The notes beneath the pieces are model-generated. The model worked only from the letters and a program-made list of their open reading frames with translations, did no database searches and was not told the DNA's origin. DNA of 64,000 nt from Polyangiaceae bacterium. GTDB taxonomy: Bacteria > Myxococcota_A > Polyangia > Polyangiales > Polyangiaceae. How positions within the stretch are numbered: position 1 is the stretch's first letter; each line of letters starts with the position of its first letter. This document shows positions 33,123 through 64,000 of this stretch, in pieces. The stretch covers positions 1,738,708 to 1,802,707 of the forward strand of contig JABTUA010000002.1 of NCBI GenBank assembly GCA_015075635.1. Direction: 5' to 3'. A program made the translations under genes and the position numbers.

Positions 33123-33126
<4 letters not shown>

Positions 33127-33449
33127 GCTGCCCTCCCGGCCAGCGCCTGCTCGAGCTGGGCCACGCTCACGCGAACGCCGCCGCCCGGCAGGCGAACGTG
33201 CGGCAGGCGACCGGCGTCGAGCCAACGGCGCGCGGTGCGCTGCGACACACCGAGGCGCTCGGCGACCTGCGGGAGCGAGAGGTAAACGATCTCGGGCGCG
33301 GGCTGCGGCTTGGCTTCCTCCCGAAGCTCCTGAAGCTCTCGCCGGGTTTCTGCTAGCTCGGTGCGCAGCTCTTCGAGCACGCCGACCAGCGGCTTCTGGG
33401 CCTCGATGATCGCGGCCGCCACGAGATCGGAGAACACATCAGACGCCAT
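33123..33449 (-). CDS. Excisionase/MerR-type HTH DNA-binding protein
   Basis: ATG at 33449. C-terminal LSLPQVAERLGVSQRTARRWLDAGRLPHVRLPGGGVRV matches the excisionase-family HTH. Confidence 0.75.
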
Positions 33450-36947: not shown

Positions 36948-37199
36948 GATACTGACCCTACGTTCAGTATACCCCGCCTGCGGTATCACGCAGCAGCAAA
37001 GTACCTGAGATCCCGAGAACATTGAACTCTTCGGTCCCAAACCCGAGTAAGTTTGGGGCGTCTCGATACACGCCGGGGGCACCCATGAGCTCCCGGCACC
37101 GGTGGGTCCAGGCGCGGAAAACCCCGCGGCGGCAGCTCGCGCCTTTCTTGAAGCCTCGGCCCGAGCCGGTCCGGGCGGGCCAAGCCACGAGCGTCGTCG
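36948..37199. promoter_or_regulatory. Divergent control region between the TcmP operon and the defence super-operon
   Basis: This 252-bp spacer is the most AT-rich stretch seen in the island. It holds two short hairpins, atactga/tcagtat at 36949-36970 and cccaaac/gtttggg at 37036-37057. No convincing -35/-10 pair was found. Confidence 0.4.
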
Positions 37200-48934: not shown

Positions 48935-51525
48935 CCCGCGCTTCCTTCGACGTCCTCGTCACGCGCCTCGCCGAGTCGCCCACGACGTTCAGCGAGCGTG
49001 AGCTGCTCGAGCCCTCGCACTGGAGCCTCGGCGAAGACGCGCGGCTGCGCGAGGACCTGCGCTTCCGCGAGACGCCCTGGGGCCGCTGGATGCTCGCCGA
49101 GGACCTCGTCGTCAACGACGCGGTCTACCGCTGGCTCCACGCCGAGCGGCGCAGCTCGGTCGCGCTCGACGCCGCGCTGAAGCGCGCGGGCGAGGTGTTC
49201 GGGCGCCGCAGCGTGTTCTGCGCCGACGACCCGCGCTTCGTGCTGCGCCACGACGCGGTCCACCTCGCGGCGAGTGAGCTGTCGCGCCAGCCGGTGGTTG
49301 AGGGCAAGATCGGCGATCTTGAGAAGTACCGAACGCACCTGCCGCTCCACAGCCTGAAGGCAGCCGCCGCCTCGGAGCCCGCCGGCGAGTGGGGGAAGCG
49401 TGCGCAGGACCAGGTCATCGAGACGCTCGGCTGGGTGCGCGTCTCGCTGCCCGGGCGTCGGCTCAACGATCGGATGTTCATCGCGGCCATCGAGGGTCAC
49501 AGCATGGACGACGGCAGGAGCGGCCTCGTCGACGGCGGCTACGCGGTCTTCGAGCTCTGGCCGTCGGGCACCAAGCAGAACCTGAGCGTGCTGGTGCGCG
49601 GCGCCTTCTCCGACCCGGAGACCGGCAACTACGCGGTCAAGAAGTACGTGGCCGACCAGCGCGACGAAGAGGGTCGCCACAACAAGGTCTCGCTCGTCTC
49701 GCTGAACCCGAACAAGGAGCGCTACCCGAGCATCGAGCTGCAGCCCGAGGACGACGATGACATCACCGTCGTGGCCAAGGTGGTGCAGGCGCTCTCGACC
49801 GACGACTACGAGCGGCGCCCCAAGGCGAAACGCCGCGTGGGTCGGCGCAACCTCACCGGTGACGAGCAGGCCACGAGGCTCGGCCGTCGCGTGGCGTCGT
49901 TCTTCGATGGCACCGCGCCCGAGGCCGACGACGAGGGCGCGACCACGGCGACGAGCACCGGCTGGCAGACGCGGCTCGTGTGCCTCGACATCGCCGCTGG
50001 CGGTCTGCAGCTCGAGGTCGGCCCGCTCGATGGTCTCCCGACGTTCGTGAAGAAGCTGCGCGTCGTGGGCACGGAGTGGGATGGCTTCGTGCTGTCGGCG
50101 AACGCCAAGACGCGCCCGACGCGCGCGGCGGTACGTCCTGGAACGGGCCCGTGGCGCTGGGAGGCTGTGGGCTTTGAGGAGGAGCACGACCTCGGCCTCG
50201 ACAAGCTCGCCCTCGACGCGCTCGACGTAATGGCGCCCACCGTGTTCCGCGTCGATGCCGACGGCGTCGGCCAGCGCATCAAGAGCACGACCCTCGCGCT
50301 CGAGCAGGCCTACCGGTTGCTGCTCCCGCCGAACGTCGGAGATGACCTCGGCACCGAGCTGGATGGCGGCTGGCGTATCTGGTCGCTCGACCTCGCGGCG
50401 CAGCTCGCGCCCGCGACGCGGCAGATGCTGTTCACGCTCGGGCTTGATGTCGGTGAGGCGTGGCCGCGACTGGAGTGGGCGCTGGCTCCGGCTTCCGCGT
50501 GGCACACCAACCCGCGCGGCGAGAGCTACCCCGTCTTCGAAGTGGGCACGGAACTGCTCGTGAACGTGGGCAGCGTCGCGGTGGAGGATGGCGACGAGGC
50601 TGTGCTGTTCCTCCACGGCCCCTCGGGGACCGAGCGCCTGCCGCTGCCGTCGAGCGGCCTCGTCTCGCTGGGCGCGCCCGCAGCAGGGCGCTGGGCCTGC
50701 GCGCTCGTGCACTCGCGCACCAGCGTGCAGCCCGCGTCGCTGCTCTTCGAGGTCGCGGAGGACGCGCTTGAGGATATCGCTGCGTCGTACTCGGCGGTCG
50801 CCCACAGCGGACTGGCTTCGCTCGAAGCGGCGGCACCGCCCGGCTGGCCCGTCACGCTGCGCTGGCGCGTCTTCGCCGCCCACGAGGAGCTGCTGGCGAC
50901 CGTCTACGGCAACGAAGACGGGACGGTGCCGGTCGACGGCGATGTCGCGGAGACGATCAAGACCCGCGCCGCGCGGAGTCGCATCGCCGACCTCCTGATC
51001 GACTTCGGCGAGTTGGGGCGACGCATCCTCGCCCACGACGGCCGCGCGTCGTTGAAGCAGGTGCGTGAGCAACTCACGGCCCTCTGGCAGCAGTGCTCCG
51101 GCCTCGTGCAGAGCCGCAAGGGCGCGTGGCTCCAGCTCAGGAAGCCGTGGTTCGAGCCCGTCACGGAGCTCTTCGGTTACGGCCTCGAGGAGGCGACGCT
51201 GCTCGCCGACGTCGAGGCTCCTCATGACCTCACCGCGTGGGGTCTCACGGTCGACGAGCGCATGATGGGCAGCATCACGCGCTCGCCCTCGCGTGTCCTC
51301 GTGCTCACCACGGACCTTGACGCCGTGCTGCGCGACCACCGCACGTGGATCGACAGCGCGTGCTCGGCAGCGAAGGTGCGTGACGCCATCATCACCGATG
51401 GCGCCCGCTGGACGACGCACCGCAAGGGCAGCCAGCAGCTCAAGCAGCAGGTGTGGAGCCTCGATCACGCCATCGGGCTCGGCAGCATCGACGAGATGCT
51501 CGGCGACCTCGCGGAGAATCTGTGA
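48931..51525 (+). CDS. S24 (LexA/UmuD-like) domain protein fused to a ~554-aa unknown C-terminal module
   Basis: HLPLHSLKAAAASEPAGEWG...AAIEGHSMDD...YAVKKYV...ITVVAKVV fits the S24 Ser-Lys fold. The C-terminal module (from 49861) is paralogous to the C-terminus of the next gene. Confidence 0.8.
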   Translation: MTRASFDVLVTRLAESPTTFSERELLEPSHWSLGEDARLREDLRFRETPWGRWMLAEDLVVNDAVYRWLHAERRSSVALDAALKRAGEVFGRRSVFCADDPRFVLRHDAVHLAASELSRQPVVEGKIGDLEKYRTHLPLHSLKAAAASEPAGEWGKRAQDQVIETLGWVRVSLPGRRLNDRMFIAAIEGHSMDDGRSGLVDGGYAVFELWPSGTKQNLSVLVRGAFSDPETGNYAVKKYVADQRDEEGRHNKVSLVSLNPNKERYPSIELQPEDDDDITVVAKVVQALSTDDYERRPKAKRRVGRRNLTGDEQATRLGRRVASFFDGTAPEADDEGATTATSTGWQTRLVCLDIAAGGLQLEVGPLDGLPTFVKKLRVVGTEWDGFVLSANAKTRPTRAAVRPGTGPWRWEAVGFEEEHDLGLDKLALDALDVMAPTVFRVDADGVGQRIKSTTLALEQAYRLLLPPNVGDDLGTELDGGWRIWSLDLAAQLAPATRQMLFTLGLDVGEAWPRLEWALAPASAWHTNPRGESYPVFEVGTELLVNVGSVAVEDGDEAVLFLHGPSGTERLPLPSSGLVSLGAPAAGRWACALVHSRTSVQPASLLFEVAEDALEDIAASYSAVAHSGLASLEAAAPPGWPVTLRWRVFAAHEELLATVYGNEDGTVPVDGDVAETIKTRAARSRIADLLIDFGELGRRILAHDGRASLKQVREQLTALWQQCSGLVQSRKGAWLQLRKPWFEPVTELFGYGLEEATLLADVEAPHDLTAWGLTVDERMMGSITRSPSRVLVLTTDLDAVLRDHRTWIDSACSAAKVRDAIITDGARWTTHRKGSQQLKQQVWSLDHAIGLGSIDEMLGDLAENL

Positions 51526-54500
51526 TGGCGCCGTCGAACTACGCTGCAATCAGCGACGAGAACCGAACGCGCTACGGCACCGACATCGGCATCGTCGGCC
51601 CGATGCTGCTCGCGGACCGCTACGACGACCGCACGCACTTCATCTTCGAGTTGCTCCAGAACGCCGAGGACGCGCTTGGCCGACGCAGCGACGCGAGGGG
51701 ACCTCGGAGCGTCACCTTCACGCTGTCGCCCTGGCGCCTGAAGCTCTCGCACTTCGGAAGACCGTTCGACGAGGCTGACGTGCGTGGCGTCTGCGGCATC
51801 GCGCAGAGCACCAAGGACCAGCACTCCATAGGCCGCTTCGGCATCGGCTTCAAGTCGGTCTACACGTTCACGGATTGCCCGGAAATTCACTCGGGCGAGG
51901 AGGACTTCGCAGTCGAAAACTACGTCCAGCCGAAGGCGGTGGCGCCGTCGGCGCGCGTCGCAGGCGAGACCCAGATCATCCTGCCCCTCAAGTTGGGCGA
52001 CAGCAGCGCGGAGCAGGAGATCGCGAACGGCTTCCAGCGCCTCGGCCCTGGCGCGCTGCTGTTCCTTCGACACATCGACGAGATCAACTGGAACATCGAG
52101 GGCGGCGCTTCCGGCGTCTACATGCGGAGCGCCCCGGAAGCTCTCGCTGAGAACGTCCACCGCATCAAGGTGATCGGCCAGGAGACCGGCAAGCCCGAGG
52201 TCGACCAGAACTGGCTGGTGTTCCACCGCGACGTGTCCTCGAACGCCGCCGAGAAGGTCGGTCGCGTTGAGATCGCCTTCTCGCTCATGCCCAGCAACGA
52301 CGAACCCGGGCGATGGGCGGTTCAGCAGCTCGTGGCGTCGCATCTGGTGGTCTTCTTCCCCACGGTCGTCTCCACGAACCTTGGCTTCCTCGTGCAGGGG
52401 CCGTACCGCACGACGCCCAGCCGCGACAACGTGCAGCGCAACGACCCTTGGAACCAACAGCTCGTGCAAGAGACGGCCGACTTGCTGGTAGAGGCCGTTC
52501 GCTGGCTTCGCGACAACGGGATGCTCGACGCTTCGGCGCTGCGTTGCCTCCCGACGGACCGAGCCAAATTCCCCGAGGGCGCGATGTTCACGCCGCTCTT
52601 CGAGGCGGTGCGCGAGGCCTTCTTGGAAGAAGCGCTGCTCCCGCGCAACGACGGCGGCCACGTCACTGCAGCACAAGCAAGGCTGGCGCGCACCCAGGAG
52701 CTGCGAGAGCTGTTCAGCGCCGGGCAGCTCGAGGAGTTGTTCGACGCCGAAGACTGCGCGTGGCTCACGGGAGACATCACGCAGGACCGCGCGCCTGAGC
52801 TTCGAAGGTACCTGCTGCAGGAACTCCAGGTTCCAGAGCTCACGCCCGACAAGATCGTCGTGAAGCTGGACAAGGCATTCCTCGAAGCGCAGTCGGACGA
52901 GTGGCTGACGCGCCTCTATGCCTTCTTGAGCGCGCAGAAGGCGATCGCGGGCCTCTTCAGCGGGCTTCCTTTGGTTCGCCTCGACGACGGCACGCACGTC
53001 GTCGCGCGCGAGAACGGGAAGTCGAATGCGTTCCTTCCCAGCGACATAGAGACCAGCTTCCCGACCGTCCGTCACGCCGTGTGTGGGTCTCCCGAGGCGC
53101 GCAGTTTCCTCGTCTCACTCGGGCTCACGGCACCGGATCCGGTCGATGACGTCGTGTGGAACGTGCTGCCGAAATACCCAGCGCCCGCAGTCGAGGGCGA
53201 CGACAACGCTTATGCCGCCGACATCGAGCGCATCCGCGTCGCCTTCAACACCGACTCGAAGGCGCAGCGAGACAAGCTGGTCTCGGCGCTGCGAGAGACG
53301 TCGTTCGTGATGGTGGTCGATGCCGGTGACGGGGAGGGCTACGTCGCTAGTCCCGGTAAGGTGTACATCGCGACAGACCGACTGAAGGCGCTTTTCGCTG
53401 GCGTTTCTGACGTCCTCGTCGTCGACGACAACTACGAGTGCCTTCGCGGAGAGGCCGTCCGTGAGCTGCTCGAGGCTTGCGGAGCGCTGAGGTACCTGCG
53501 CCCGGTGCCGACCCCGAACGCGCTTTCGCCGGAGGCGCGCCGGGAACTCCGACGCCAAACCGGCCATGAACAACTTGGGCAGTACGAGGATGTGACGGAT
53601 TGGGAACTGCTGGGTATTGAAGCGCTTCTCGCTCTGCTGCCGACGCTTTCCCAAGAGCAGCGCGCTGAACGCGCGCGCTTGCTCTGGGAATCCTTGGGCG
53701 ACCTCGAGGAGCGACGCGGGCGTGGCGTGTTCGAGGGCTCCTACACGTGGACGCACTACGGCCAGCGCAAGGCACCGCCGTTCCCGGCCGCCTTCCTCCG
53801 TCGTCTCGCCAAGGCAGCATGGGTGCCCGATGCCAGCGGCGATCTGGTGCGTCCCGCGCTCGTGACTTTCGAGAGCCTCAGCTGGAAGGCCAACCCGTTC
53901 CTCCTCAGCAAGATCGCGTTCAAGCCGCCGATCATCGACCAACTCGCGAAGGAAGCGGGAATCGAGCCCGCAGCGCTCGACCTGCTGCGAAAGCTCGGCA
54001 TCACCAGCGTCGCCGATCTGGCCCGCATCGGCATCGCCAACAAGCCTCCGCCCTCACCGCCTGATGAAGCGGCGACCGATAACGATGAAACGGCGGACGA
54101 AGGCGCGGAGGCGCAGGCCGCGGAGGTCGACGAGGCCAGCGATGATGCTGACGACGCCCTCAGCGTCGCCAATGCGGCTGCCTCGGAGGATAACGACGCC
54201 TCCGACCTGACCGTGGCCGACGCTGATGAGCCAGCGGGGAGCGACACCAACGACGAAAGCCCCGAAGCAGAACCGACCGGGCCGCACGCCAACGGCGCTC
54301 GCGGACCTCGGTCAACTAGCGGCCAGCACCGCCCCCACGGAGCAGCACGTCCGGGTCAACGCAACATCACCGGCCAAGCAGGGCTCGACGAGCAGGCAAA
54401 GCGCCTGCGGCGCCGCGTGGCGTCGTTCTTCGAGGGCGCGACCTCCGACGCAGACGACGAAGATACGACCGCAAGTTCGAGCGTCGCGTGGCAGACGAAG

Positions 54501-56048
54501 CTCGTCTGCCTCGACGTCGCTGCGGGCGGCCTCCAGCTCGAGATCGGTCCGCTCGATGGTCTCCCGCCCTTCGTGAAGAAGCTCCGCGTCCTCGGCACCG
54601 AGTGGGATGCCTTCGTGTTGGCGACGAACGCGAAGTTGCGCCCAACGCGGGTGTCTGTGCGGCCCGGAACCGGTCCGTGGCAGTGGGAGGCCGTGGGCTT
54701 CGAAGACGAGCAAGACCTCGGCCTCGACCAGCTCGCGCTCGGCGCGCTCGACGTCACGACGCCGCGCGTGTTCCGCGTCGACACAGAGGGCGTGGGCCAG
54801 CTCGTCACGAGCACCACCCTCTCCCTCGGGCAGTCCTATCGGCTGCTGCTTCCGCCGAACGTCGGTGGGGAGGTCGGCACGGCGCTGGCTGACGGGTGGA
54901 GGATCTGGACGCTCGACCTGCCGGCGCAGCTCTCGCCGTCGACGGGCGACGCACTGAAGGCCATCGGCGTTGACGTGGGCGAAGCATCGCCGCGCCTCGA
55001 GTGGGCCCTGGCCCCTGCTTCAGCGTGGCGCACCAACGCGCGTGGCGACAGCTATCCGGTGTTCGACGAGGGGATGGAGCTCCTCGTGAACCTGAACGCC
55101 GTCGCCCTCGAGGACGGCGACGAGGCCATGCTGTCCCTCCACGGCCCCGCAGGCACGGAACGCCTGGCTCTCTCGACGAGCGGGCTCGTCTCCCTGGGCA
55201 AACCCGCGGCGGGACGGTGGGCCTGCGCGCTGCTGCATTCGCGGACCAACGTGCAGACCGCGACGCTGGTCTTCGAGGTCGCGCGGAGCGTCACCGAGTA
55301 CGTCAGCGCGGCGTGGACGACGGGCGTGCCGCACGGATTGGCGTCGCTCGAAGCGACCGCCCCGCCTGGGTGGCCCGTCTCCGTGCGCTGGGGTGGGCTC
55401 GCCGCACACGAGGAGACGATCGCGACGGTCTACGGCAACGACGACCGGACCGTGTCCTTCGAGGATGTCCATCCACTCCTCGAGGCCCGTGCCGCACGAG
55501 CATCCGTCGCTGACCTCGTCGTCGACTTCCGCGAGCTGGGTCGCCGTCTGGTCCCTCTCGAGGGCCGCGCCTCGCTGGAGGAAATCCGCGCGCAGCTCAT
55601 CGCTCTCTGGCAACAGCGCTCCGAGCTCGTGCAGAGCCGCAAGGGCATGTGGTTGCAGCTCATGCCCACGTGGTTCGAGCCGACGACGACACGCCTTGGC
55701 TATGGCGTCGAATCGCTCGCCATACCCGACGGCGCAGATGCGCCGCACGACCTCGCCGCGTACCTGCTCACCATCGACGAGCGGACGAACGGAAGCATCA
55801 CGCGGTCGCCGTCGCGTCTCCTCGTGCTCACGACCGACGTCGACAGCGTGCTCCGCGACCTGCGCGAGTGGATCGACAGCGCCTGCGCGGCAGCGAGGGT
55901 GCGCGACGCGATCGTCACCGACGGCACCCGGTGGGCGACGCACCGCAAAGGCGACCGCCAACTCCGGCGGCGCGAGTGGTCGTTCGACCGCGCAATCAAT
56001 CTCGGCAGCGTGGACGACATGCTGAACGACCTCACGGAGGGTTTGTGA
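51525..56048 (+). CDS. GHKL (Bergerat-fold, sacsin/MORC-like) ATPase, 1507 aa, with acidic linker and shared C-terminal module
   Basis: N-box FIFELLQNAEDAL and G-box SIGRFGIGFKSVYTF. Asp/Glu/Ala-rich linker at about 54040-54290. The C-terminal ~553 aa are paralogous to the previous protein. TGATG overlap. Confidence 0.85.
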   Translation: MAPSNYAAISDENRTRYGTDIGIVGPMLLADRYDDRTHFIFELLQNAEDALGRRSDARGPRSVTFTLSPWRLKLSHFGRPFDEADVRGVCGIAQSTKDQHSIGRFGIGFKSVYTFTDCPEIHSGEEDFAVENYVQPKAVAPSARVAGETQIILPLKLGDSSAEQEIANGFQRLGPGALLFLRHIDEINWNIEGGASGVYMRSAPEALAENVHRIKVIGQETGKPEVDQNWLVFHRDVSSNAAEKVGRVEIAFSLMPSNDEPGRWAVQQLVASHLVVFFPTVVSTNLGFLVQGPYRTTPSRDNVQRNDPWNQQLVQETADLLVEAVRWLRDNGMLDASALRCLPTDRAKFPEGAMFTPLFEAVREAFLEEALLPRNDGGHVTAAQARLARTQELRELFSAGQLEELFDAEDCAWLTGDITQDRAPELRRYLLQELQVPELTPDKIVVKLDKAFLEAQSDEWLTRLYAFLSAQKAIAGLFSGLPLVRLDDGTHVVARENGKSNAFLPSDIETSFPTVRHAVCGSPEARSFLVSLGLTAPDPVDDVVWNVLPKYPAPAVEGDDNAYAADIERIRVAFNTDSKAQRDKLVSALRETSFVMVVDAGDGEGYVASPGKVYIATDRLKALFAGVSDVLVVDDNYECLRGEAVRELLEACGALRYLRPVPTPNALSPEARRELRRQTGHEQLGQYEDVTDWELLGIEALLALLPTLSQEQRAERARLLWESLGDLEERRGRGVFEGSYTWTHYGQRKAPPFPAAFLRRLAKAAWVPDASGDLVRPALVTFESLSWKANPFLLSKIAFKPPIIDQLAKEAGIEPAALDLLRKLGITSVADLARIGIANKPPPSPPDEAATDNDETADEGAEAQAAEVDEASDDADDALSVANAAASEDNDASDLTVADADEPAGSDTNDESPEAEPTGPHANGARGPRSTSGQHRPHGAARPGQRNITGQAGLDEQAKRLRRRVASFFEGATSDADDEDTTASSSVAWQTKLVCLDVAAGGLQLEIGPLDGLPPFVKKLRVLGTEWDAFVLATNAKLRPTRVSVRPGTGPWQWEAVGFEDEQDLGLDQLALGALDVTTPRVFRVDTEGVGQLVTSTTLSLGQSYRLLLPPNVGGEVGTALADGWRIWTLDLPAQLSPSTGDALKAIGVDVGEASPRLEWALAPASAWRTNARGDSYPVFDEGMELLVNLNAVALEDGDEAMLSLHGPAGTERLALSTSGLVSLGKPAAGRWACALLHSRTNVQTATLVFEVARSVTEYVSAAWTTGVPHGLASLEATAPPGWPVSVRWGGLAAHEETIATVYGNDDRTVSFEDVHPLLEARAARASVADLVVDFRELGRRLVPLEGRASLEEIRAQLIALWQQRSELVQSRKGMWLQLMPTWFEPTTTRLGYGVESLAIPDGADAPHDLAAYLLTIDERTNGSITRSPSRLLVLTTDVDSVLRDLREWIDSACAAARVRDAIVTDGTRWATHRKGDRQLRRREWSFDRAINLGSVDDMLNDLTEGL

Positions 56049-57031
56049 TGACGCTCTCGCATGTCACTCGCGAAGAGGCAGTGAAGCGGCTCGCTGAGAG
56101 GCAAGCCGGTGCCCCAGACTCCATCGAAGCGCTGTGCGATTTCCTGCGCGCCGAGGTTCACGCCCGGAAGCACGCGCCGCGCGCGGCGACGCTTTCGCGC
56201 GTCGCACGACTGCTCGCGCCCGCCATCACGCTCGATGAGCAGCGCCTCGACGAGGTGTGCGACGCGCTCGAGCGCGAGGGTGACGTGATGCTCAACCCGG
56301 GCGGCATCCTCTACGCAACGCCGACCCGCGTGGTTGCCACTGAGACGAGTGCTCGTACCTTCAGCAGCGTGCCGACGCGCGCGCTTGCGAAGGCGCTCGG
56401 ACGCGACATCTCCGCGAAGGGCGCCTCGCGCACAATCACCTCGGTGGAAGGGCTCACCGAAGCCGTCGCCAAGGTGAGCGGCGTGATGGTCCCACCCGCA
56501 GCGTGGGCCGGGCTCGACCGCTCGCCGAACGCCGACGCGGCCTTCCTTGGGAAGCTCGACCAGAGGCTCGAATGGCAGGCGCTCGGCGCAGGCTCGCTTG
56601 AGAAGGACGGGGCGCTCGAATGGCGTGCCTGGCATGTCACGCCGGAAGGGGCGCGGTGGCGGCGCAGCAACGAAGGCCAACTCTGGTGGGCGCGTACGCG
56701 CTTCGGCAGCCACCATCGCGCGTGGACGACGAGCGCGTCTCCGGCGACGAGCCCGTTCGTCGCGCTGAGCCCCGACGACGCCGACCGCGCCCGCTTCGCG
56801 CTCTCGCGCGAGATCGCTGCGGCTTCGGTCCTGCGTGTCGAGCGAGCCGGCAAGCGCGTGACTATCGAGGTTCCCGGTTGGCTGCCGCGCCCCGAGTACC
56901 GCTGGCTCTCGCTGCACGCGGTGGCCGTTGCGGAGAGCAAGGGCATGCGCTGGGAGACCTCGACGGATAGCGAAGACCAGATCACGAAGCTGCTGGCCGA
57001 GCGTCTCGGTCTCGTCGTGGAGGCCACGTGA
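56048..57031 (+). CDS. Hypothetical protein (327 aa)
   Basis: The ATG at 56048 overlaps the previous stop (TGATG). GC3-biased. No family recognised. Confidence 0.7.
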   Translation: MTLSHVTREEAVKRLAERQAGAPDSIEALCDFLRAEVHARKHAPRAATLSRVARLLAPAITLDEQRLDEVCDALEREGDVMLNPGGILYATPTRVVATETSARTFSSVPTRALAKALGRDISAKGASRTITSVEGLTEAVAKVSGVMVPPAAWAGLDRSPNADAAFLGKLDQRLEWQALGAGSLEKDGALEWRAWHVTPEGARWRRSNEGQLWWARTRFGSHHRAWTTSASPATSPFVALSPDDADRARFALSREIAAASVLRVERAGKRVTIEVPGWLPRPEYRWLSLHAVAVAESKGMRWETSTDSEDQITKLLAERLGLVVEAT

Positions 57032-59094
57032 CGCGACGACAGCTCACCATCAAACCGAGCTGCATGCGGGAGATCGCGACGTTCCCTTCGGACCGCGCCG
57101 CGCTGCTCTGGGACAAGATCGACGCGCTCGTCTCCGACCCACTCCCCGATGGGAAGGTGAAGAAGAAGCTCAAGGGCGCCGACGGCGTCTACCGCATGCG
57201 CGTGACGGACCACCGCGTGTTCTATCGCTTCGGCGAGGACTGGCTCAGCCTGCTCGGCATCCGGCGGCGCGCCGAAGACACCTACGACGGCGTGCCCGAC
57301 GAGACCGCCGGCGCCCAAGCGCCCGACGACGGCGACGAAAACCTCGATGCGCTCATCGCAGCCGCGCAGCCGAAGGTCTTCCAGCTCAAGACGACCGCGC
57401 CCGAGACAACGCTGCCCGAGCCCATCACGCAGGAGCTGCTGCGCGAGCTCGGCGTGCCCGTCGCGGTGGTGCCGACTCTGTTGCACTGCAAGACGGAAGA
57501 AGCGTTGCTCGAAGCCCCCGTGCCTCCCGACGTTCTCAGTCGCGTCGTCGACCGCCTCTTCCCGCCGACCATCGAACGGCTCGACGAGCAGCCCGATCTC
57601 GTCGTCGCGTCCACGAAGGACCTGGTTCGTTTCAAGGAGGGCGACCTCCTCGGCTTCCTGCTGCGGCTCGACGAGGACCAGCTCAAGCTGACCCAGTGGG
57701 CGATGAAGGGACCCACGCTTGTTCGTGGCGGTGCAGGTACGGGCAAGAGCACCGTCGCCCTCTACCGCGTGAAGGCCCTCCTCGAACGGCCCGGCGCGAC
57801 AGGCGCCGAGCGCGTGCTGTTCACGACCTACACGCGCTCGCTGCTCACCGTAACGCAGCAGCTCCTCGAACAGCTCCTCACGCCCGCCCAGCTTCGCCGT
57901 GTCGATGTCGCGACGTGCGACCAGGTTGCATGGCGCATCGTCGGCAAGGCTCGCAAGGTCGGCCAGCTCGAATCCGACAACGACGCGCTCAAGCGCCTGG
58001 CCAAGCTCCGGGCGACGCACGCGCCCGGCGGCTCCGACTTCGAAGCGAAGCTGCGTGCGCGGGCGCTGGAGCGCCTGACGGACGCGTGGCTGCTCGAAGA
58101 GTTCGAGTGGATCATCGAGGGACGCGGCCTGACGAGCCTCACCGAGTACCAGGCGGCGGCGCGTCCGGGTCGAGGGCTGCCGCTCAACGAGCGTGCTCGC
58201 GCGGCTGTTTGGGAACTGTACGAGGCGTTCAGCAGGGGCGCGGGCGAACGCTACCCGGCGCTGCGCTGCGAGGCGCTGAAGCTGCTCGCCGAAGACGCCA
58301 AGGCGGTCCGCTACGACTACGTGGTCGTCGATGAGGCGCAGGACCTGAGCCCCGTCTCGCTCGCGCTGATGGCCGAGGTCTGCAAGACCGCCGAGGGCCT
58401 GTTCTTCGCCGCCGACAACAAGCAGTCGCTCTACTCGCGCAACTACACGTGGAGCTCGGCGCACCCGCGCCTCCAGTTCCGAGGGCGCACGGCGCTGCTC
58501 TCTCGCAACTACCGCTCGACGCGTGAGATCGACCGCGCCGCGTTCTCGGTGCTCGTGCCCGGTGAGGACGAGGAGCTGGTGGCCTCGAATAGCGTCCACG
58601 AAGGGCCGCTTCCGGTGCTGGTACGTGGCATCGCCGCCGACAAGCAGGCCGAGTGGATGGCACGCTTCGTCCGGCAAATGGCGCGTCACCTTCACCTGAA
58701 GGCGAGCACCGCCGCCGTGCTCGTACCCGTGGCTGCCGCAGGCGAAACGCTGGCCACCGAGCTTCAGGCGCAGGGCGTCCCGGCTCGCTTCTTCCCTGGC
58801 CGCGATCTCGACCTCAAGGCCGACGTCGTGCGCGTGTTGACGCTGCACGCGGCCAAGGGCCTGGAGTTTCCCATCGTCATCGTCGCTGGCCTCGACAGCG
58901 GCAACTGGCCCGTGCCCGAGGACTTCGAAGAACCGGACCTCTTCGCTGAGCGCGCACGCCACGAGCGGCGTGTGCTCTACGTCGGGCTCACCCGCGCGAT
59001 GCGCGGCTTGATGCTGATTTCTCCACAAGGATGTCGGCATCCCGCCGTCGTCGATCTCGACCTCAACCACTGGCACGTGGAGAGCGCCCCATGA
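57028..59094 (+). CDS. RelE/ParE-like N-domain fused to UvrD/Rep-type SF1 helicase
   Basis: N-terminus KKLKGADGVYRMRVTDHRVFYRFGEDWLSLLGIRRRAEDTY. Helicase motifs GGAGTGKSTVALY, YDYVVVDEAQDLSP, RNYRSTREI, LTLHAAKGLEFPIVIV, VLYVGLTRAMRGL. Confidence 0.88.
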   Translation: MTRRQLTIKPSCMREIATFPSDRAALLWDKIDALVSDPLPDGKVKKKLKGADGVYRMRVTDHRVFYRFGEDWLSLLGIRRRAEDTYDGVPDETAGAQAPDDGDENLDALIAAAQPKVFQLKTTAPETTLPEPITQELLRELGVPVAVVPTLLHCKTEEALLEAPVPPDVLSRVVDRLFPPTIERLDEQPDLVVASTKDLVRFKEGDLLGFLLRLDEDQLKLTQWAMKGPTLVRGGAGTGKSTVALYRVKALLERPGATGAERVLFTTYTRSLLTVTQQLLEQLLTPAQLRRVDVATCDQVAWRIVGKARKVGQLESDNDALKRLAKLRATHAPGGSDFEAKLRARALERLTDAWLLEEFEWIIEGRGLTSLTEYQAAARPGRGLPLNERARAAVWELYEAFSRGAGERYPALRCEALKLLAEDAKAVRYDYVVVDEAQDLSPVSLALMAEVCKTAEGLFFAADNKQSLYSRNYTWSSAHPRLQFRGRTALLSRNYRSTREIDRAAFSVLVPGEDEELVASNSVHEGPLPVLVRGIAADKQAEWMARFVRQMARHLHLKASTAAVLVPVAAAGETLATELQAQGVPARFFPGRDLDLKADVVRVLTLHAAKGLEFPIVIVAGLDSGNWPVPEDFEEPDLFAERARHERRVLYVGLTRAMRGLMLISPQGCRHPAVVDLDLNHWHVESAP

Positions 59095-62000
59095 GCAATG
59101 TGAACCTCCACAACTACGCCGATGAAGGTCGTCTCGTCGACGCGGACATCGTCGGCTTCCTCCGCAAGAAGCTCGACAAGGGCGACAAGCTTGATTTCAC
59201 GAACATAGTCGAGGTGGCCGACGCGGTGCTCGACGCGCTTTTCGACGGCTGGTCGCCGGAGCAAGTGGCCGAGGTCATCGCTGAGCTGAGCCCGGCCGCC
59301 GACAGGGCGCTCGCTGCGTGGTCGGATCGCGCGGGCGGCAAGGTCACGAAGGCAGAGAAGACCACGCGCAAAGCCACCGTGCGCAAGCCGGCGCAGTCGC
59401 CGCGCCCGCCCTCGGTCCTCGAACGCGACCCGACGGGCGACGAGCGTTTCACGCCCACGCGCCTCGTGCGCCGTCTTCAGGAGGCCCTGCAGGGCTACAT
59501 CGAGAGCGCATACCCGCTGAACGACCCGACGCTGGTCCGCTCACGTCGCCGCCTGCTCAAAGAGGAGGCGGGCGGCCACCTGCTCGCGCAGGAGCCCTAC
59601 ATCGAGACCACCACGCGCTACGCGACGTCGAAGGCGACCTACGGTGACATCGGGTTCACGCCGGAGATCGCAGGCTTTTTCTCGAAACTGGCCAAGACGC
59701 CGTCGGCGCAGAGCACTCCGGAGGACGAACGCACGGTCCTTCTTCCGTCGATCTACATGCATCAGGAGCGCGCCTTCCGCGAGTTCCTCGTGGAGCGGAA
59801 GGACATCGTCGTGGCGACGGGCACGGGCTCCGGGAAGACGGAGTGCTTCCTCGTGCCGATGCTGGGCTCGCTCTACGATGAGGCCGTTCGGTCGCCGAGG
59901 ACGTTCGAGCAGCCCGGCGTGCGCGCGCTGATCCTGTACCCGATGAACGCGCTGGTGAATGACCAACTCTCGCGCCTGCGCCTGCTACTCGGCGACCCTG
60001 CCGTCGCCGACGCCTTCAAGGGGCTCGGGAAGGATCGCCGCTTCCCGCGCTTCGGCATGTACACCGGGCGCACGCCGTACCCCGGCCCGCGAACGACCTC
60101 GCGAGACGGCGAGCGTGTGAAGCCGCTGCTTGACTACTATTTGGGCCTGCCGCCCGAGGTCGAAGAACGCCTCCGTCGTCTGGGACGCTATCCCGCCAAG
60201 GATCTCCGCGCCTTCTACGCGCAGAACGAGGCGCGCCGCAAGACGTACCAGAGCGGCAAGCGCACCGGGCAGGAGTATACGGACCACAACTGGGAGCGGC
60301 GCCTGCATACCGGGGCTGCCGATCGCGAGCTGCTGACGCGGCAGGAGATGGTCCACGGCGCAGGCAGCCGCCCGGGCCACGCGCCCGACGTCCTGGTCAC
60401 GAACTATTCGATGCTCGAGTACATGCTCATGCGCCCGTTCGAGCGCCCCATCTTCGCCGAGACGAAGGGCTGGCTCGACCGGGACGGCACGCAGCTCCTG
60501 CTCGTCCTCGACGAGGCGCACATGTACCGGGGAGCCAAGGGTGCGGAGGTCGCGTTCCTCATCCGCCGCTTGCGCGCGCGTCTTGGCATCCACGACCGCC
60601 CCGACAAGCTGCGCGTCATCGCCACATCCGCCTCGCTCGGCGAAGGCGCGGCGGCGGTCGATGCGGTCAAGCGCTTCGCCGCTGACATCACCGGCAAGCG
60701 CCCTGAGAGCTTCGAGGCCATCACGGGCACGCGCGAGGTTCCGACGCCTGCCAGCCCCGCCCCGAAGGACGTGGCCGACACGCTGGCCTCGCTCGACCTC
60801 GACGGCATCAACGAGGCGCTCGACGCACCCGCGCTCCGCGAGAAGCTCGCGCCGCTGCTCCCGGCGAGCATCGCGACTGACGCCAGCGAGAACGAAGTGC
60901 TCGCGGCCCTGCATGCAGCCTTGAAGAACAAGCCGTGGGTCAACCAGTTGGTGAAGGAAGCGGCTGGCCACGCGGTCGCAGTGAGCGAGCTCGCTCCGCG
61001 CGTGTTCCCGGGTCACCCGGAGGCTCGCCGCGCGCTGGAAGCGCTTCTCACGGTGTCCACGCTCGCGCGCAACAAGGCCGACGAACCGGGGTTAGTGCCG
61101 ACGCGCGTGCATGGGCTCTTCCGTGGCCTGCACGGGCTCTATGCCTGCGTGAACCCGCAGTGCGGTGGACGCCAGAGCGAGCCGGGCGAGCAGGCTATCC
61201 TGGGCAAGCTATTCACCACTCCGAGCGCGGTGTGTGACGCCTGCGGCTGCCGCGTCTTCGAGATCGCGTCATGCCGCGACTGCGGCAGCCCGTACCTGCT
61301 CGCCTACTCGCAGGAGGAGTCGCTCGACCGGCTCTCCTTCCTCTGGGGCGAGACCGAGGGCGCGCTGTTCCGTCTGCAGCTTTTGCCGACCGCGCCGCGC
61401 TACACCGACCGCACCGAGATCGTGCGGCTCCACCTGCGCACCGGCTACCTCGATACCGGCAATCGCTTCCCTGACGACGAGGTTCGCAACCTGGCCCTCT
61501 GGCTCGATAGCGATGGCAAGCGCGAGGCCTCGTTCGACCGCTGCGCCATGTGCCAGCCCTCGGCGAACGCGAGGAGCCGCATCCACGACTTCAGGACGCG
61601 CGGCGAGCAGCCCTTCACGGCGCTCATCGAGGCGCAGTTCGCGGAACAGCCGCCGCAGAAGAAGGACCGTCGCCTACCGAACCACGGGCGAAAGGTCCTG
61701 GTCTTCAGCGACGGCCGGCAGAAGGCTGCACGCCTGGCACCCGCGCTCGAGCACAGCCACGCACGCGATCTGTTCCGCCAGGTCGTCGCGCTTGCTGCCC
61801 ACGAGCTTCGTGACAAGGCGGGCATGTCGGCGATGCAGTACCTCTATCCCGCCGTCGTGCATCTCTGCGCCCAGCGCGGCTACGACCTGTTTCCTGCCGC
61901 CGACGAGAGCGAGTTCCACAACCATCTGAAGCAAGCGAATGGACGTTCGCTCGCAGAGGTAAGGAAGCTCGCAGATCGCGGCATGCTGCGCGCCACGCGT

Positions 62001-64000
62001 TCGTTCGCGCAGGCCATCTTCAGCGAGCTGACTGACCGTTACTACTCGCTGCAAGCGCTCGCGCTCGCGACCATCGAAGAAGACCCCGACACGGCGTTCA
62101 TGATCTTCGATGACTTCCCGACCGTCGGTCTCGACGCTGACGCGCAGAAGGTCCTCTTCCGTGCGTGGCTTCGCCAGCATCTCGAGCGGCGCTCGTTCAG
62201 CCCCAACGGTGCCGAAACGCGCGAGCTCGGTGAAGGATGGGCACACCCGCAAGGCATCAACGCCACGCGCTTCGAGCATGTCCTTCCCAACCGCTTCGAC
62301 CAGTACCTCGCCCACGTTCTAGGTGGCGATGCCGCCAAGGTCGAAGCTGTGAGCAAGTGGTTCCAGCATTTTGTGCGCGACAAGGGCCTGTTGCACTTCG
62401 AGAGCGACCTCTACTACCTGCGTCTTGAGGGCTTGAGCCTGAACCTTCGGCTCGACTCCAACTGGCTGCGCTGCCAGGACTGCGCGCGCATTCATCCCGA
62501 GGCGCTGGCCAATGCGTGCCCCGCGTGCTTGGGCGCCGTCGTCGATGTCGATCCCGACTACCTCGACGCCCGCACCGGGTTCTACAGGCAGCAGATGCAG
62601 CGAGCCTTCGATGAGCGCGCGATCGAGCCCTTCGGTCTCTTGGCGGCAGAGCACTCTGCACAGCTCACGGGCCAGCCCGACGAGAGCGCCTTCAACAAGG
62701 TCGAGGAGTACGAGCTGCGCTTCCAGGACGTGCCGCTCGACAACCTGCCGCCGATCGACGTGCTGAGCTGCACGACGACGATGGAGGTCGGCATCGACAT
62801 CGGCGCGCTCTCCGGCGTTGCGCTGCGCAACGTGCCGCCTCACGTCGCGAACTACCAGCAGCGGGCAGGTCGTGCGGGCCGTCGTGGCCGCTCGATCGCG
62901 TCGGTCATCACCTACGCCCACGGCACCTCTCACGACGCTCACTTCTTTGACCACCCTGAGCAGATCATCTCGGGCGACGTACACGCGCCGGTCGTCTACG
63001 TCGAGAACCAGCAGGTGCTTGCGCGGCACGTGCACGCCTATCTCGTGCAGCGCTTCTTCCATGAGCGCGTGCCACCGGACCCTACCAGCTACGATCTGTT
63101 CGGCTCCCTGGGGTCGGTTGAGCAGTTCCTCTCCGAGGCGCACCCTTGCTCGCTGCTCAAGCTCGAAGCGTGGCTCGATGAGAACGCCGACGTTCTGCAG
63201 CGTGAGCTCGCGGGTTGGGTGCCCGCGTTCAGCTTCGGCCTCAACGAGCCCATCGCCGAGGTCGAGGGCACAATCCGTGAAGCAATCCCCAACGCCAAGA
63301 GGCGCATTCGCGACGTGCTCCCGGTCGCGGAATACGCGGCCCGTGAGAGTCTCCCCGACCTCGAACGCGAGTCGCTCGAACGCCGCCTTGGCGAGCAACT
63401 CCTCGACACGCTCATCTGTCAAGCGGTCTTCCCGCGCTATGCGTTCCCGACGGACGTCGTGACGTTCTGGGTCTCGAAGCCTAGGCAACAAGGCGACGCT
63501 CCCAACAAGCGGACCTTCGACTACGAACCGCAGCGCGACCTTCAGCTTGCACTCACCGAGTACGCGCCCGGCCGAAGCCTCACCATCGACAAATGGCGCT
63601 TCGAGTCGGCGGCGCTCTACTCGCCCTATGAGCCGAGCCCAGCGCACACGATCCAGCGGCAGCGGCCGTACACGTCGTGCAGCGATTGCTCGTGGGCGAC
63701 GATGGACGGCTCGATGGCGCAAGCCACGCTGTGCCCGGTGTGCGGAAGCGACCAGCTCACGCGGACCGCGTTCATCACGCCAGCAGGCTTCGCACCGGAC
63801 CTAAACGCCAAGCGCGAGGTCGATCGCGGTCAGGCCATCAGCTACGCGGGCATGACCGACCGCGCGCGGCTCGAACCGCAGGACCCACCCTCGGCGTGGG
63901 CGGAGGGCTGCGACGGCCGCCTCCTGCGGTGGACCGGCCCGCGCCGCCTCGTGATGGTCAACAAGGGCGTCGGCCAGCGTGGCTTCCGCGTGTGCCCCGA
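59091..64000 (+). CDS. DEAH helicase fused to a DUF1998 zinc-ribbon domain (DruE-like / fused DrmA-DrmB-like), 3' end outside the window
   Basis: I translated the frame myself. It is absent from the ORF track because it has no stop in the window. Motifs seen are VATGTGSGKTECFLVP, LVLDEAHMYRG, IATSASLG, TTTMEVGIDIG, NYQQRAGRAGRRG, the DUF1998-like LALTEYAPGRSLTIDKWRF, and CSDC...CPVCGS at 63678-63746. Confidence 0.85.
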   Translation, partial: MSNVNLHNYADEGRLVDADIVGFLRKKLDKGDKLDFTNIVEVADAVLDALFDGWSPEQVAEVIAELSPAADRALAAWSDRAGGKVTKAEKTTRKATVRKPAQSPRPPSVLERDPTGDERFTPTRLVRRLQEALQGYIESAYPLNDPTLVRSRRRLLKEEAGGHLLAQEPYIETTTRYATSKATYGDIGFTPEIAGFFSKLAKTPSAQSTPEDERTVLLPSIYMHQERAFREFLVERKDIVVATGTGSGKTECFLVPMLGSLYDEAVRSPRTFEQPGVRALILYPMNALVNDQLSRLRLLLGDPAVADAFKGLGKDRRFPRFGMYTGRTPYPGPRTTSRDGERVKPLLDYYLGLPPEVEERLRRLGRYPAKDLRAFYAQNEARRKTYQSGKRTGQEYTDHNWERRLHTGAADRELLTRQEMVHGAGSRPGHAPDVLVTNYSMLEYMLMRPFERPIFAETKGWLDRDGTQLLLVLDEAHMYRGAKGAEVAFLIRRLRARLGIHDRPDKLRVIATSASLGEGAAAVDAVKRFAADITGKRPESFEAITGTREVPTPASPAPKDVADTLASLDLDGINEALDAPALREKLAPLLPASIATDASENEVLAALHAALKNKPWVNQLVKEAAGHAVAVSELAPRVFPGHPEARRALEALLTVSTLARNKADEPGLVPTRVHGLFRGLHGLYACVNPQCGGRQSEPGEQAILGKLFTTPSAVCDACGCRVFEIASCRDCGSPYLLAYSQEESLDRLSFLWGETEGALFRLQLLPTAPRYTDRTEIVRLHLRTGYLDTGNRFPDDEVRNLALWLDSDGKREASFDRCAMCQPSANARSRIHDFRTRGEQPFTALIEAQFAEQPPQKKDRRLPNHGRKVLVFSDGRQKAARLAPALEHSHARDLFRQVVALAAHELRDKAGMSAMQYLYPAVVHLCAQRGYDLFPAADESEFHNHLKQANGRSLAEVRKLADRGMLRATRSFAQAIFSELTDRYYSLQALALATIEEDPDTAFMIFDDFPTVGLDADAQKVLFRAWLRQHLERRSFSPNGAETRELGEGWAHPQGINATRFEHVLPNRFDQYLAHVLGGDAAKVEAVSKWFQHFVRDKGLLHFESDLYYLRLEGLSLNLRLDSNWLRCQDCARIHPEALANACPACLGAVVDVDPDYLDARTGFYRQQMQRAFDERAIEPFGLLAAEHSAQLTGQPDESAFNKVEEYELRFQDVPLDNLPPIDVLSCTTTMEVGIDIGALSGVALRNVPPHVANYQQRAGRAGRRGRSIASVITYAHGTSHDAHFFDHPEQIISGDVHAPVVYVENQQVLARHVHAYLVQRFFHERVPPDPTSYDLFGSLGSVEQFLSEAHPCSLLKLEAWLDENADVLQRELAGWVPAFSFGLNEPIAEVEGTIREAIPNAKRRIRDVLPVAEYAARESLPDLERESLERRLGEQLLDTLICQAVFPRYAFPTDVVTFWVSKPRQQGDAPNKRTFDYEPQRDLQLALTEYAPGRSLTIDKWRFESAALYSPYEPSPAHTIQRQRPYTSCSDCSWATMDGSMAQATLCPVCGSDQLTRTAFITPAGFAPDLNAKREVDRGQAISYAGMTDRARLEPQDPPSAWAEGCDGRLLRWTGPRRLVMVNKGVGQRGFRVCP

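Follow-up and report, generated by a model that had tools for sequence, protein, structure and literature searches.

A type I-lineage Druantia DruE helicase in a conserved gene module without DruA or DruC on a Polyangiaceae tRNA-Thr island

To our knowledge, type III (DruH-DruE) alone among the Druantia types has had its mechanism described; we know of none for type I, and of no function assigned to DruA, DruB, DruC or DruD. Type I, as set out by Doron et al. in 2018, reportedly consists of DruA-DruB-DruC-DruD-DruE. The type I lineage nearest to the locus described here has DruA, a protein of the DruB family (~955 aa), DruD, DruE and, optionally, a PD-(D/E)XK nuclease, 'DruK'. The type III DruE helicase unwinds DNA in the 3'-to-5' direction from ssDNA and loads at duplex-ssDNA junctions after processing by its partner (bioRxiv 10.64898/2026.05.13.724758, 10.64898/2026.05.13.724313), and type IV is defined by DruF/DruL (PMC8565338). 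ARMADA type II is composed of ArmA-ArmB-ArmC-ArmD (Bell et al. 2025, PMC12458937).

The window, which is the whole stretch of 64,000 nucleotides analysed here from a Polyangiaceae metagenome-assembled genome (MAG), ends within a long reading frame (MBE7483088.1). The original prediction described this frame as open to the window edge, with SF2 motifs I, II, III and VI and multiple Cys clusters, all of which was borne out: translation from the ATG gave 1636 codons without a stop, the four motifs lay in frame, and CxxC pairs were confirmed where they had been predicted (Table 1). The Cys pairs were all invariant in six clade members that were 54-79% identical to the window protein. The closest in-frame stop 5' of the ATG ended at 58949; the ATG overlapped the TGA of the preceding gene (ATGA) and was preceded by a Shine-Dalgarno-like GGAGAG. 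On the source contig the stop was located outside the window, at the window-equivalent position 64904, and the window frame represented the first 84% of a 1937-aa helicase.

Pfam analysis of the windowed fragment revealed matches to DEAD and Helicase_C only, because the MZB/DUF1998 domain (residues 1726-1804 of the full protein) lies past the window end at residue 1636. When the contig-extended protein was searched, the proposed DUF1998 domain was recovered (MZB, 45.3 bits against a cut-off of 24.2) together with DEAD and Helicase_C. In contrast to the original prediction, which placed the last Cys cluster within a DUF1998-like region, both this cluster (C1530..C1551) and LALTEYAPGRSLTIDKWRF (residues 1486-1504) were outside DUF1998 proper. 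Bell et al. (2025, PMC12458937) describe zinc-binding inserts in the OB-CON region, which precedes DUF1998, and the cluster probably corresponds to one of them.

Table 1. Coordinates of features in the window
Feature	Position	Strand	Remarks
tRNA-Thr(CGT)	31798-31872	+	left island boundary
Tyrosine integrase ORF	31804-33225	-	left island boundary
SNF2-family helicase, 1468 aa	37200..41606	+	first gene of the ten-gene overlapping array
Type ISP/IIG-like N6-adenine methyltransferase, 1340 aa	41603..45625	+	Type_ISP_C specificity domain
McrB-type AAA+ GTPase, 642 aa	45618..47546	+	DUF8426 + AAA_5 + McrB_lid
McrC, 462 aa	47546..48934	+	overlaps both neighbours
P864, 864 aa	48931..51525	+	S24/LexA-like 163-285 (sub-threshold), DruB-like 340-720, C-terminal alpha/beta domain
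Sacsin/TmtA-like protein, 1507 aa	51525..56048	+	N-terminal ~800 aa sacsin-type ATPase
Divergent DruD homologue, 327 aa	56048..57031	+	hhalign, canonical DruD HMM
UvrD/GajB/ArmD-like SF1 helicase, 688 aa	57028..59094	+	N-terminal RelE/ParE-fold domain
DruE helicase, N-terminal 1636/1937 residues	59091..64000	+	YprA-family SF2, DEAH, type I lineage
SF2 motif I, GTGSGKT	59820		helicase frame
SF2 motif II, DEAH	60510		helicase frame
SF2 motif III, TSAS	60624		helicase frame
SF2 motif VI, QQRAGRAGRRG	62856		helicase frame
Helicase CxxC pairs	61233, 61272, 61542, 62472, 62517, 63678, 63732		plus C686/C691

The best model for the helicase was DruE1 (PADLOC), with scores of 1368 bits for the fragment and 1567.7 bits for the full protein; on the same HMM a genuine type I DruE scored 2300 bits and a type III DruE 541 bits. 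The match was collinear and spanned the whole model (profile positions 9-1770 of 1776). Identity to bona fide type I DruE proteins was ~35%, and the summed BLAST scores to these proteins (786-880 bits) equalled the level observed between type I DruE subclades (746-793 bits), compared with ~380-400 bits to DruE3 and ~250 bits to ArmC of the E. coli ARMADA reference (Sakai, NC_002695.2). In a neighbour-joining tree of 84 helicases, built with no support values, the helicase clade was monophyletic and was placed inside the type I radiation. Identities between clade helicases and others were bimodal, at either ≥52% or ≤37%, and the window helicase carried a clade-specific N-terminal extension of ~120 aa. 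The 1937-aa protein also has the make-up of the Druantia signature gene product, DruE, a YprA-family SF2 helicase of ~2000 aa with DUF1998/MZB. By these sequence comparisons, the window helicase falls within the type I DruE lineage and does not belong with the helicases of ARMADA or DISARM or with MrfA. The original prediction had left a choice between DruE and a DrmA-DrmB fusion; the first was supported (DruE1, 1568 bits) and the second was not, the DrmA models giving no more than 47 bits. Unlike in DISARM, where a separate DrmB carries it, DUF1998 is fused to the helicase, and the associated nuclease is of the PD-(D/E)XK type and not the PLD protein DrmC.

A housekeeping role in DNA repair, as an MrfA/YprA- or Lhr-type helicase, would be in keeping with the YprA family and the DUF1998/MZB domain of the window protein, relatives of which are annotated in sources as 'ATP-dependent helicase YprA'. 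This explanation was effectively refuted. The MrfA-like NCBIfam model TIGR03817 gave 116 bits against a cut-off of 874, MrfB was absent, and the ~1900-aa protein, with its multiple Zn modules, had its best models in DruE. MrfA/YprA repair helicases are proteins of ~750 aa that are encoded in the core genome beside MrfB or in no conserved context, whereas this gene has defence-type neighbours on an integrase-bearing island of lower GC content at a tRNA gene, and is patchily distributed across phyla with ~90% identity between distant taxa.

Directly 3' of the helicase gene, on the contig beyond the window and translationally coupled to it, was a gene encoding a PD-(D/E)XK nuclease of the Cas4/RecB type, rather than the PLD/DrmC-like nuclease that had been suggested. 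This nuclease was homologous to the PD-(D/E)XK gene product found 3' of many canonical type I DruE genes and matched PADLOC DruK. Residues D188, D201-x-K203, Q214xxxY218 and C30/C282/C285/C291 were conserved in at least 90% of 21 sequences; the predicted catalytic and Fe-S residues are intact. The tail of the helicase after DUF1998 is only ~130 aa in length and aligned with the type I DruE tail, which Bell et al. (2025, PMC12458937) report to be a Vsr domain that has been inactivated. A clade-specific strand, 'VWVDVHHPL', was observed in the tail, which might conceivably retain some residual nuclease activity.

No known Druantia partner had originally been recognised upstream of the helicase, and this remained the case by eye, with PADLOC even at E≤10 and with Pfam, but deeper profiles revealed a DruD homologue and a DruB-like core. 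The 327-aa protein showed full-length homology to DruD (hhalign 99.5%, E 1e-22; canonical DruD HMM, E 1.2e-15), its gene being separated from that of DruE by the 688-aa helicase gene. The beta-sandwich core of P864, at residues 340-720, matched DruB (hhalign 95.6%, E 1.3e-8) and the ~955-aa DruB-family protein of the commonest type I lineage (97%, E 8e-11), while the N- and C-terminal regions of P864 differed from DruB and residues 1-340 had no counterpart in DruB proteins. Profiles of three or four sequences had given P864 no likeness to DruA, DruB or DruC; the deeper profiles reversed this result for DruB only, and the PADLOC DruB models did not match P864. Treatment of the ~955-aa canonical protein as a 'fused DruBC' was dropped, with the DruC signal absent; the commonest canonical type I lineage likewise had no DruC signal.

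Residues 163-285 of P864 probably constitute an S24/LexA-like Ser-Lys peptidase domain, which is offered as a lead only. The isolated fragment scored 16 bits for S24 in Pfam, below the cut-off of 23.3, and a local hhalign comparison was in register but had a P of only 0.047; there was no match to LexA with the full-length profile and none in the PDB by phmmer. The AF2 models of P864 (pLDDT 64, pTM 0.35) and of the DruD-like protein (pLDDT 61.5) were mediocre, and Foldseek returned no functional match for either: generic tandem Ig-like structures only (TM-scores ≤0.13) when P864 was compared with the PDB, and no match for the DruD-like protein (best E 0.09).

DruA was not detected by PADLOC on the neighbouring genes at E≤10, and a 21-sequence HMM, run on every ORF of the window, of the contig extension and of 11 clade loci, gave no match at E<0.1. 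DruC gave an hhalign probability of <1%, and its HMM found nothing in the window, the contig extension or the clade loci. There were no PADLOC matches to DruM/DruF/DruG (type II), DruH (type III) or DruF/DruL (type IV) in any neighbouring gene.

These data bear on whether the locus is an ordinary type I system in which DruA-C have diverged past recognition and P864 is a diverged long DruB. P864 occupies the position of the ~955-aa DruB-family gene directly upstream of DruD and has the homologous core, DruD and the DruK-like nuclease are common to both, the helicase is collinear with type I DruE and falls within type I sequence depth, and the order (DruB-like, DruD, DruE, nuclease) is the same apart from the inserted gene. 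That insertion, however, a RelE/ParE-UvrD-like SF1 helicase between DruD and DruE, was present in all clade loci and in no canonical locus surveyed. Furthermore, DruA (DUF4338) was 74% identical among three distant type I hosts, yet its profile failed to find a homologue here, as did that of DruC. The DruB-like protein also differs, with an N-terminus that is S24-like or, in a paralogue, a sacsin-type ATPase; the helicase has its extra N-terminal domain, and the cassette is usually joined with McrBC. An ordinary type I system is therefore considered unlikely. The cassette fits none of the four described Druantia types, and is a variant within an established defence family rather than a system of a new kind.

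The sacsin gene is a tandem paralogue of the P864 gene with a swapped N-terminal module: over the last 575 aa of its product, identity to the DruB-like module at the C-terminus of P864 is 66%. It was found only in the closest relatives. Its N-terminal ~800 residues resembled the Tiamat protein TmtA (193 bits) and carried the sacsin ATPase domain, but only positions 71-850 of the 1486 in the TmtA profile were matched, the C-terminus was the P864/DruB-like module and not that of TmtA, and the gene was translationally coupled on both sides within the cassette rather than standing alone. P864 and the DruD-like protein belong to rare families (362 and 183 clusters; 128 representatives), which were seen here in this context only.

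The gene between the DruD and DruE homologues encodes an SF1 helicase with intact motor motifs: Walker A (234-242), DEAQD (435-439) and TRA (655-657) were conserved, as were the RelE-like residues R56, R58, R63, R79-81 and Y86. ParE_toxin matched residues 23-84 with 24.0 bits (cut-off 23). The protein scored 98 bits for GajB in PADLOC and was 29% identical to E. coli ArmD over 518 aa (E 3e-40).

This similarity raises a type II-like ARMADA system beside McrBC, with extra genes inserted, as an explanation. An SNF2 helicase, a large N6-methyltransferase, a YprA/DUF1998 helicase and a RelE-like plus GajB-like helicase, which are all four component kinds, occur alongside McrBC in a single operon, and this operon is carried by an integrative element at a tRNA gene; ARMADA has been reported near McrBC, and ArmD consists of a RelE-like domain and a GajB-like helicase (Bell et al. 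2025). However, the gene with the ArmD architecture lies upstream of the YprA gene and not downstream. The SNF2 helicase and methyltransferase are six genes upstream, with McrBC and three to four further genes between the methyltransferase and the YprA gene, whereas ArmA and ArmB directly precede the YprA gene. Neither protein was accepted as an orthologue of ArmA (BrxHII-like) or ArmB (PglX-like): BLAST matched the SNF2 protein to ArmA over ~50 residues only, a generic motor motif, and the methyltransferase had no match to ArmB. The YprA helicase itself was much closer to type I DruE than to ArmC by BLAST score and lacked the long C-terminal Vsr nuclease array of ArmC. The locus also encodes DruB- and DruD-like proteins and, as a protein apart from the helicase, a Cas4-like nuclease, and in two loci (L004 and L034) the module is not directly preceded by McrBC. 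An ARMADA system was judged very unlikely.

The DruE-type cassette forms the 3' half of a ten-gene operon, running from 37200 to contig-equivalent 66058, that includes the SNF2 helicase, the methyltransferase and McrBC, and in which all nine junctions overlap, by 1-8 nt. A promoter and terminator scan of 36-56 kb gave counts at or below the shuffled expectation. The G+C content decreased from ~0.71 to 0.64-0.69 past the tRNA-Thr/integrase boundary. The downstream attR that had been envisaged was not found, with no 14-nt match to the tRNA-Thr in the window or in the 5 kb past it.

Conservation was assessed in the helicase-clade loci with enough flanking sequence (n=8). The same five genes, encoding P864, the DruD-like protein, the SF1 helicase, DruE and the nuclease, were present in the same order in all eight independent loci, and three further cassette loci were found through P864. 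This order was kept across helicases with as little as 52% identity, in hosts from the Myxococcota, Alpha-, Beta- and Gammaproteobacteria, Acidobacteriota and Chloroflexota. McrBC usually shared an operon with the module, as did the methyltransferase and SNF2 helicase in several loci.

It was also considered that the genes are stacked by chance in a defence island, with no functional unit larger than DruE and its nuclease. Defence islands commonly place unrelated systems side by side, and the genes could be divided into a split type ISP-like restriction-modification pair, McrBC, Tiamat, a Gabija-like helicase and a solitary DruE with its nuclease; PADLOC alone would call TmtA, a GajB-like protein, McrBC and an orphan DruE. 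McrBC was not directly upstream in 2/8 loci, and the sacsin gene was restricted to the closest relatives. Set against this are the invariance of the five-gene order across several phyla, the confinement of two rare families to this context, the overlap at every junction, the C-terminal module that the supposed Tiamat gene shares with P864, and the fusion of SNF2 to a P864-type module in other proteins. Chance stacking is consequently quite unlikely.

The explanation that best fits these data, to which we assign a probability of about 75%, is that DruE is the motor of a conserved five-gene module without DruA or DruC, inside a ten-gene operon. The module would consist of P864, DruB-like with a putative S24-like N-terminus, the DruD-like protein, the RelE/ParE-UvrD-like SF1 helicase, DruE and the Cas4/RecB-type Fe-S nuclease. 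In the Polyangiaceae MAG the DruB-like gene appears to have been duplicated, the second copy having a sacsin-ATPase N-terminus, and the translationally coupled operon would be carried on an island integrated at tRNA-Thr.

The type III DruE has in common with the window helicase the SF2 DEAH core, the YjiV_N region, the Zn modules and MZB/DUF1998, and it is from this likeness that 3'-to-5' translocation starting at ssDNA or fork junctions is deduced, although the similarity is limited to ~28% identity over ~700 aa. By analogy, DruE may load where replicating phage DNA exposes ssDNA or has fork-like junctions, and then translocate in the 3'-to-5' direction. Such a transfer of mechanism is a loose one, because the type III DruE has its own tandem C-terminal PLD nuclease domains and a partner exonuclease, DruH, which is unrelated to DruB and DruD; the cassette described here has no DruH, and its PD-(D/E)XK nuclease is encoded by a gene of its own. 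DNA cleavage would be supplied in trans by the downstream nuclease, because the helicase tail is short and aligns with the inactivated-Vsr tail of type I. The SF1 helicase may act as a second motor, as in AddAB/RecBCD, or as an accessory like ArmD in ARMADA II, and the DruB-like and DruD-like proteins may form a sensing or licensing scaffold. For this clade we infer anti-phage activity, complex formation and substrate from sequence.

The DruB-like module may bear interchangeable N-terminal enzymatic heads. The N-termini behind which P864-type modules were seen are of the S24-like peptidase, sacsin/Tiamat-type ATPase, SNF2 helicase (alone or together with an Mrr nuclease) and Lhr-like DEAD helicase kinds, which suggests a modular organisation. 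A tentative extension, possible but doubtful at present, is that the module at ~294-864 of P864 is a docking adaptor that joins these heads to a DruD-DruE-nuclease core. If so, the window, with two heads in tandem, would encode a natural Druantia machine with swappable sensor/effector modules, Tiamat-type ATPases would be physically linked to Druantia, and there would be a first functional handle on the type I accessory proteins.

Compared with canonical type I, DruA and DruC are missing from this variant and an SF1 helicase is extra, whereas DruD, the core of DruB, DruE and the Cas4-like nuclease have been retained; the retained genes point to a minimal conserved Druantia core and suggest that a nuclease acting in trans may make up for the activity that type I DruE lacks. 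The PADLOC v2 models for DruA-D miss the partners in the cassette, which is then seen as an orphan DruE with neighbours read as separate GajB-like and Tiamat genes. A dedicated model set would mend the annotation wherever the cassette occurs, which is in a few hundred genomes and metagenome bins. In two of the three related loci found through P864 the UvrD-like gene was disrupted, and given this disruption the gene may be dispensable.

The system around the window helicase was classed as a variant form of Druantia type I with a partner set of its own; this set agrees with none of Druantia types I-IV, the types recognised in the searchable literature up to mid-2026. The surprise is moderate, since a specialist would expect DruE in a defence island; the interest lies in a reduced or altered partner set and a modular DruB-like adaptor.

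Translated in frame 3, the stretch between the ATG at 59091 and the last window base gave 1636 codons and no stop, confirming the open frame of the original prediction; its omission from the ORF track was due solely to its running past the window end. The ATG shares bases with the preceding stop codon (ATGA), and GGAGAG lies 5' of it. The full-length gene was read from the contig of a Polyangiaceae MAG (GCA_048500035.1, JASNYU010000001.1), matched exactly via the complete upstream protein. With the contig so extended, the helicase (MBE7483088.1) has 1937 aa and its gene ends at window-equivalent 64904. The predicted SF2 motifs and Cys clusters were all found in place, and the cysteines were invariant across six aligned relatives that share 54-79% identity with the window protein. 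The last cluster exists, but it does not lie inside a DUF1998-like region as had been thought: the stretch so described (residues 1486-1551) precedes Pfam MZB/DUF1998 (1726-1804, outside the window) and probably corresponds to the OB-CON region with zinc-binding insert described by Bell et al. 2025.

The helicase scored 1568 bits with the PADLOC DruE1 model, the match being collinear from profile position 9 to 1770 of 1776, compared to 617-689 bits for DruE2, DruE3 and DruE4, 85 for DpdJ and 47 for DrmA. On the DruE1 scale, genuine type I DruE proteins, taken from plasmids with annotated DruA, score approximately 2300 bits and E. coli type III DruE 541. The helicase is thus DruE-like as predicted; the suggested alternative, a DrmA-DrmB fusion, is not supported by the DrmA score. 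Since PADLOC v2 is older than ARMADA, ArmC of E. coli Sakai was added to the comparison. Summed BLAST bits were 786-880 against type I DruE, ~380-400 against DruE3 and ~250 against ArmC; the two canonical type I subclades gave 746-793 against each other. A conserved N-terminal extension of ~120 aa is particular to the window clade (the helicase and its close relatives). The tail of ~130 aa past DUF1998 is alignable to type I DruE and has no Vsr region, unlike ArmC, where this region is long. When 84 helicases were placed in a neighbour-joining tree with ArmC as root and no support values, the window clade was monophyletic within the type I DruE radiation. Membership in MrfA, raised beforehand as the alternative to a defence clade, was not found, nor did the system belong to ARMADA or DISARM.

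One genome per GTDB species was surveyed, giving 80 loci, in which identity to the window helicase was bimodal (≥52% or ≤37%). HMMs made for the window neighbours and canonical DruA-D were run on all ORFs of these loci. In all eight independent clade loci with enough flank, the order was constant: P864 (~700-900 aa), a ~330-aa protein, a UvrD-like helicase, a DruE-like helicase and a PD-(D/E)XK nuclease; these HMMs gave no match to DruA, DruB or DruC there. Loci at ≤37% were largely canonical type I (DruA, DruB/C or a ~955-aa protein, DruD, DruE), about a dozen with a homologous PD-(D/E)XK gene immediately downstream. Further loci, from Xenophilus, Corallococcus and Ardenticatenia, were reached by way of P864 homologues and show that a larger array is also conserved: SNF2, type ISP-like methyltransferase, McrB, McrC, P864, (sacsin gene), DruD-like, UvrD-like, DruE and nuclease. 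Neighbouring genes of this ten-gene array overlap in the window at every one of the nine junctions, by 1-8 nt; the array sits in a lower-GC island that starts with tRNA-Thr and an integrase. Cassette proteins were 88-92% identical among the Polyangiaceae MAG, Xenophilus (Betaproteobacteria), Rhodanobacter (Gammaproteobacteria) and Corallococcus (Myxococcota), a degree of identity that points to a recent horizontal spread of the complete array.

Coordinates of features in the window and in comparison loci (L numbers)
Feature	Location	Strand	Remark
422-aa ORF	window 33954-35222	-	between integrase and PDC-M41; no Pfam/PADLOC match
PDC-M41 pair (PADLOC candidate system)	window 35239-37220	-	two genes, divergent, just upstream of ten-gene array
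DUF5131 protein of pair	window 35239-36006	-	PADLOC 416 bits
PDC-M41A	window 36006-37220	-	PADLOC 429 bits
SNF2 protein, first 415 residues	window 37200-38444		no Pfam/PADLOC match
Segment compared with Xenophilus L091	window 45618-59094
P864 (864 aa)	window 48931-51525	+
Sacsin gene (1507 aa)	window 51525-56048	+
DruD-like (327 aa)	window 56048-57031	+
UvrD-like helicase	window 57028-59094	+
2578-aa sacsin-domain protein	L004 17063-24799		after nuclease, not within cassette
~955-aa protein	L008 5019-7886
DruH-DruE pair, E. coli	L009 18056-27703
Type II DNA methyltransferase	L062 15198-16100		immediately after DruE
Broken RelE-UvrD-like gene, Xenophilus	L091 18089-21031
Split RelE-UvrD-like gene, Corallococcus interemptor	L093 13584-14959
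P864/DruD-like locus	L094 3853-9776		more distant; P864 62% identical

The original prediction recognised no Druantia partner upstream. This held for PADLOC and Pfam, which gave no match to the 327-aa protein, but not for deeper profiles: against 37 canonical DruD sequences the probability was 99.5% (E 1e-22, full length), and the canonical DruD HMM matched directly (E 1.2e-15). At L094 the DruD-like domain is the C-terminus of a 1095-aa protein with a Sigma70_r4 HTH domain, and an SNF2 helicase gene lies upstream of P864.

The P864 family is small (362 clusters) and has no Pfam annotation. With deeper profiles, residues 340-720 matched DruB (95.6%, E 1.3e-8), and residues 415-708 matched the ~955-aa protein that the commonest type I lineage carries (97%, E 8e-11); DruA and DruC gave no signal even with deeper profiles. 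The P864 N-terminus probably holds an S24/LexA-like domain, in which Ser191 and Lys237 are invariant and in register with LexA; every S24/LexA test was sub-threshold. The ~955-aa protein (L008 and about 30 GTDB loci) was weakly DruB-like (hhalign 35.8%, E 4e-4) and showed no similarity to DruC in profile comparison, so many 'type I' systems may altogether lack a DruC equivalent.

The 1507-aa gene, between the P864 and DruD-like genes, resembles a Tiamat/sacsin ATPase in PADLOC and Pfam searches. Over its final 575 residues, however, it shares 66% identity with residues 294-864 of P864, which makes it, by sequence, a tandem paralogue of P864 with a swapped N-terminal head rather than a separate system inserted there. 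Exhaustive phmmer found 128 relatives of the shared module among 1.84 billion representatives, C-terminal in every host; the commonest hosts are P864-sized (about 860-930 aa). Among eight hosts scanned with Pfam, two had SNF2 heads (one with Mrr_cat), two Lhr-like DEAD heads, one a sub-threshold S24-like head and three no match. As evidence of the Rosetta-stone type, the SNF2 fusions support a functional link of the module to the SNF2 helicases of these operons. The 2578-aa sacsin-domain protein of L004, one of the clade loci, lacks the module.

The UvrD-like protein has an SF1 motor intact by sequence and an N-terminal domain above the Pfam ParE_toxin cut-off; its helicase core aligned to E. 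coli ArmD (29% identity, E 3e-40) and also to GajB models. This RelE-UvrD-like gene is broken in Xenophilus by an IS with a DDE transposase and split in Corallococcus interemptor into 286-aa and 179-aa pieces, the remaining cassette genes being intact in both. These disruptions resemble ARMADA II, where ArmD was reported to be less required (EHEC study). In an alignment of 21 nuclease sequences drawn from both clades, D188, D201-x-K203, Q214xxxY218 and a Cas4/AddB-type four-Cys pattern were kept in at least 90%; both sets matched PADLOC 'DruK' weakly (31-49 bits).

The mechanism that we infer is a proposal as a whole. Type III DruE unwinds 3'-to-5' from exposed ssDNA, and is loaded where duplex DNA meets ssDNA, following processing by its partner; because the motors are homologous, window DruE would act on phage replication intermediates. 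Licensing or targeting of this motor would fall to the DruB-like and DruD-like proteins, the SF1 helicase would serve as a second, accessory motor, and the separate Cas4-like nuclease would supply cleavage. Self-marking and a complementary restriction layer may come from the methyltransferase, SNF2 helicase and McrBC that are co-transcribed.

In E. coli K-12, yjiT and yjiV, adjoining mcrBC and mdtM, are what is left of a druH-druE pair of Druantia type III, which accounts for the Pfam name YjiV_N. The pair is intact in another E. coli (L009; DruH3 1830 bits, DruE3 2695 bits); K-12 strains cover only 46% of druE, in features annotated yjiT and 'DEAD/DEAH box helicase'. At one locus in the Firmicutes branch of the type I systems (L062; DruB1 373 bits, DruD1 516 bits), the methyltransferase (PD-Lambda-5_B/MTase_II, 375 bits) may be relevant to the unexplained changes in m6A that have been reported in type I Druantia (bioRxiv 10.1101/2024.04.14.589459).
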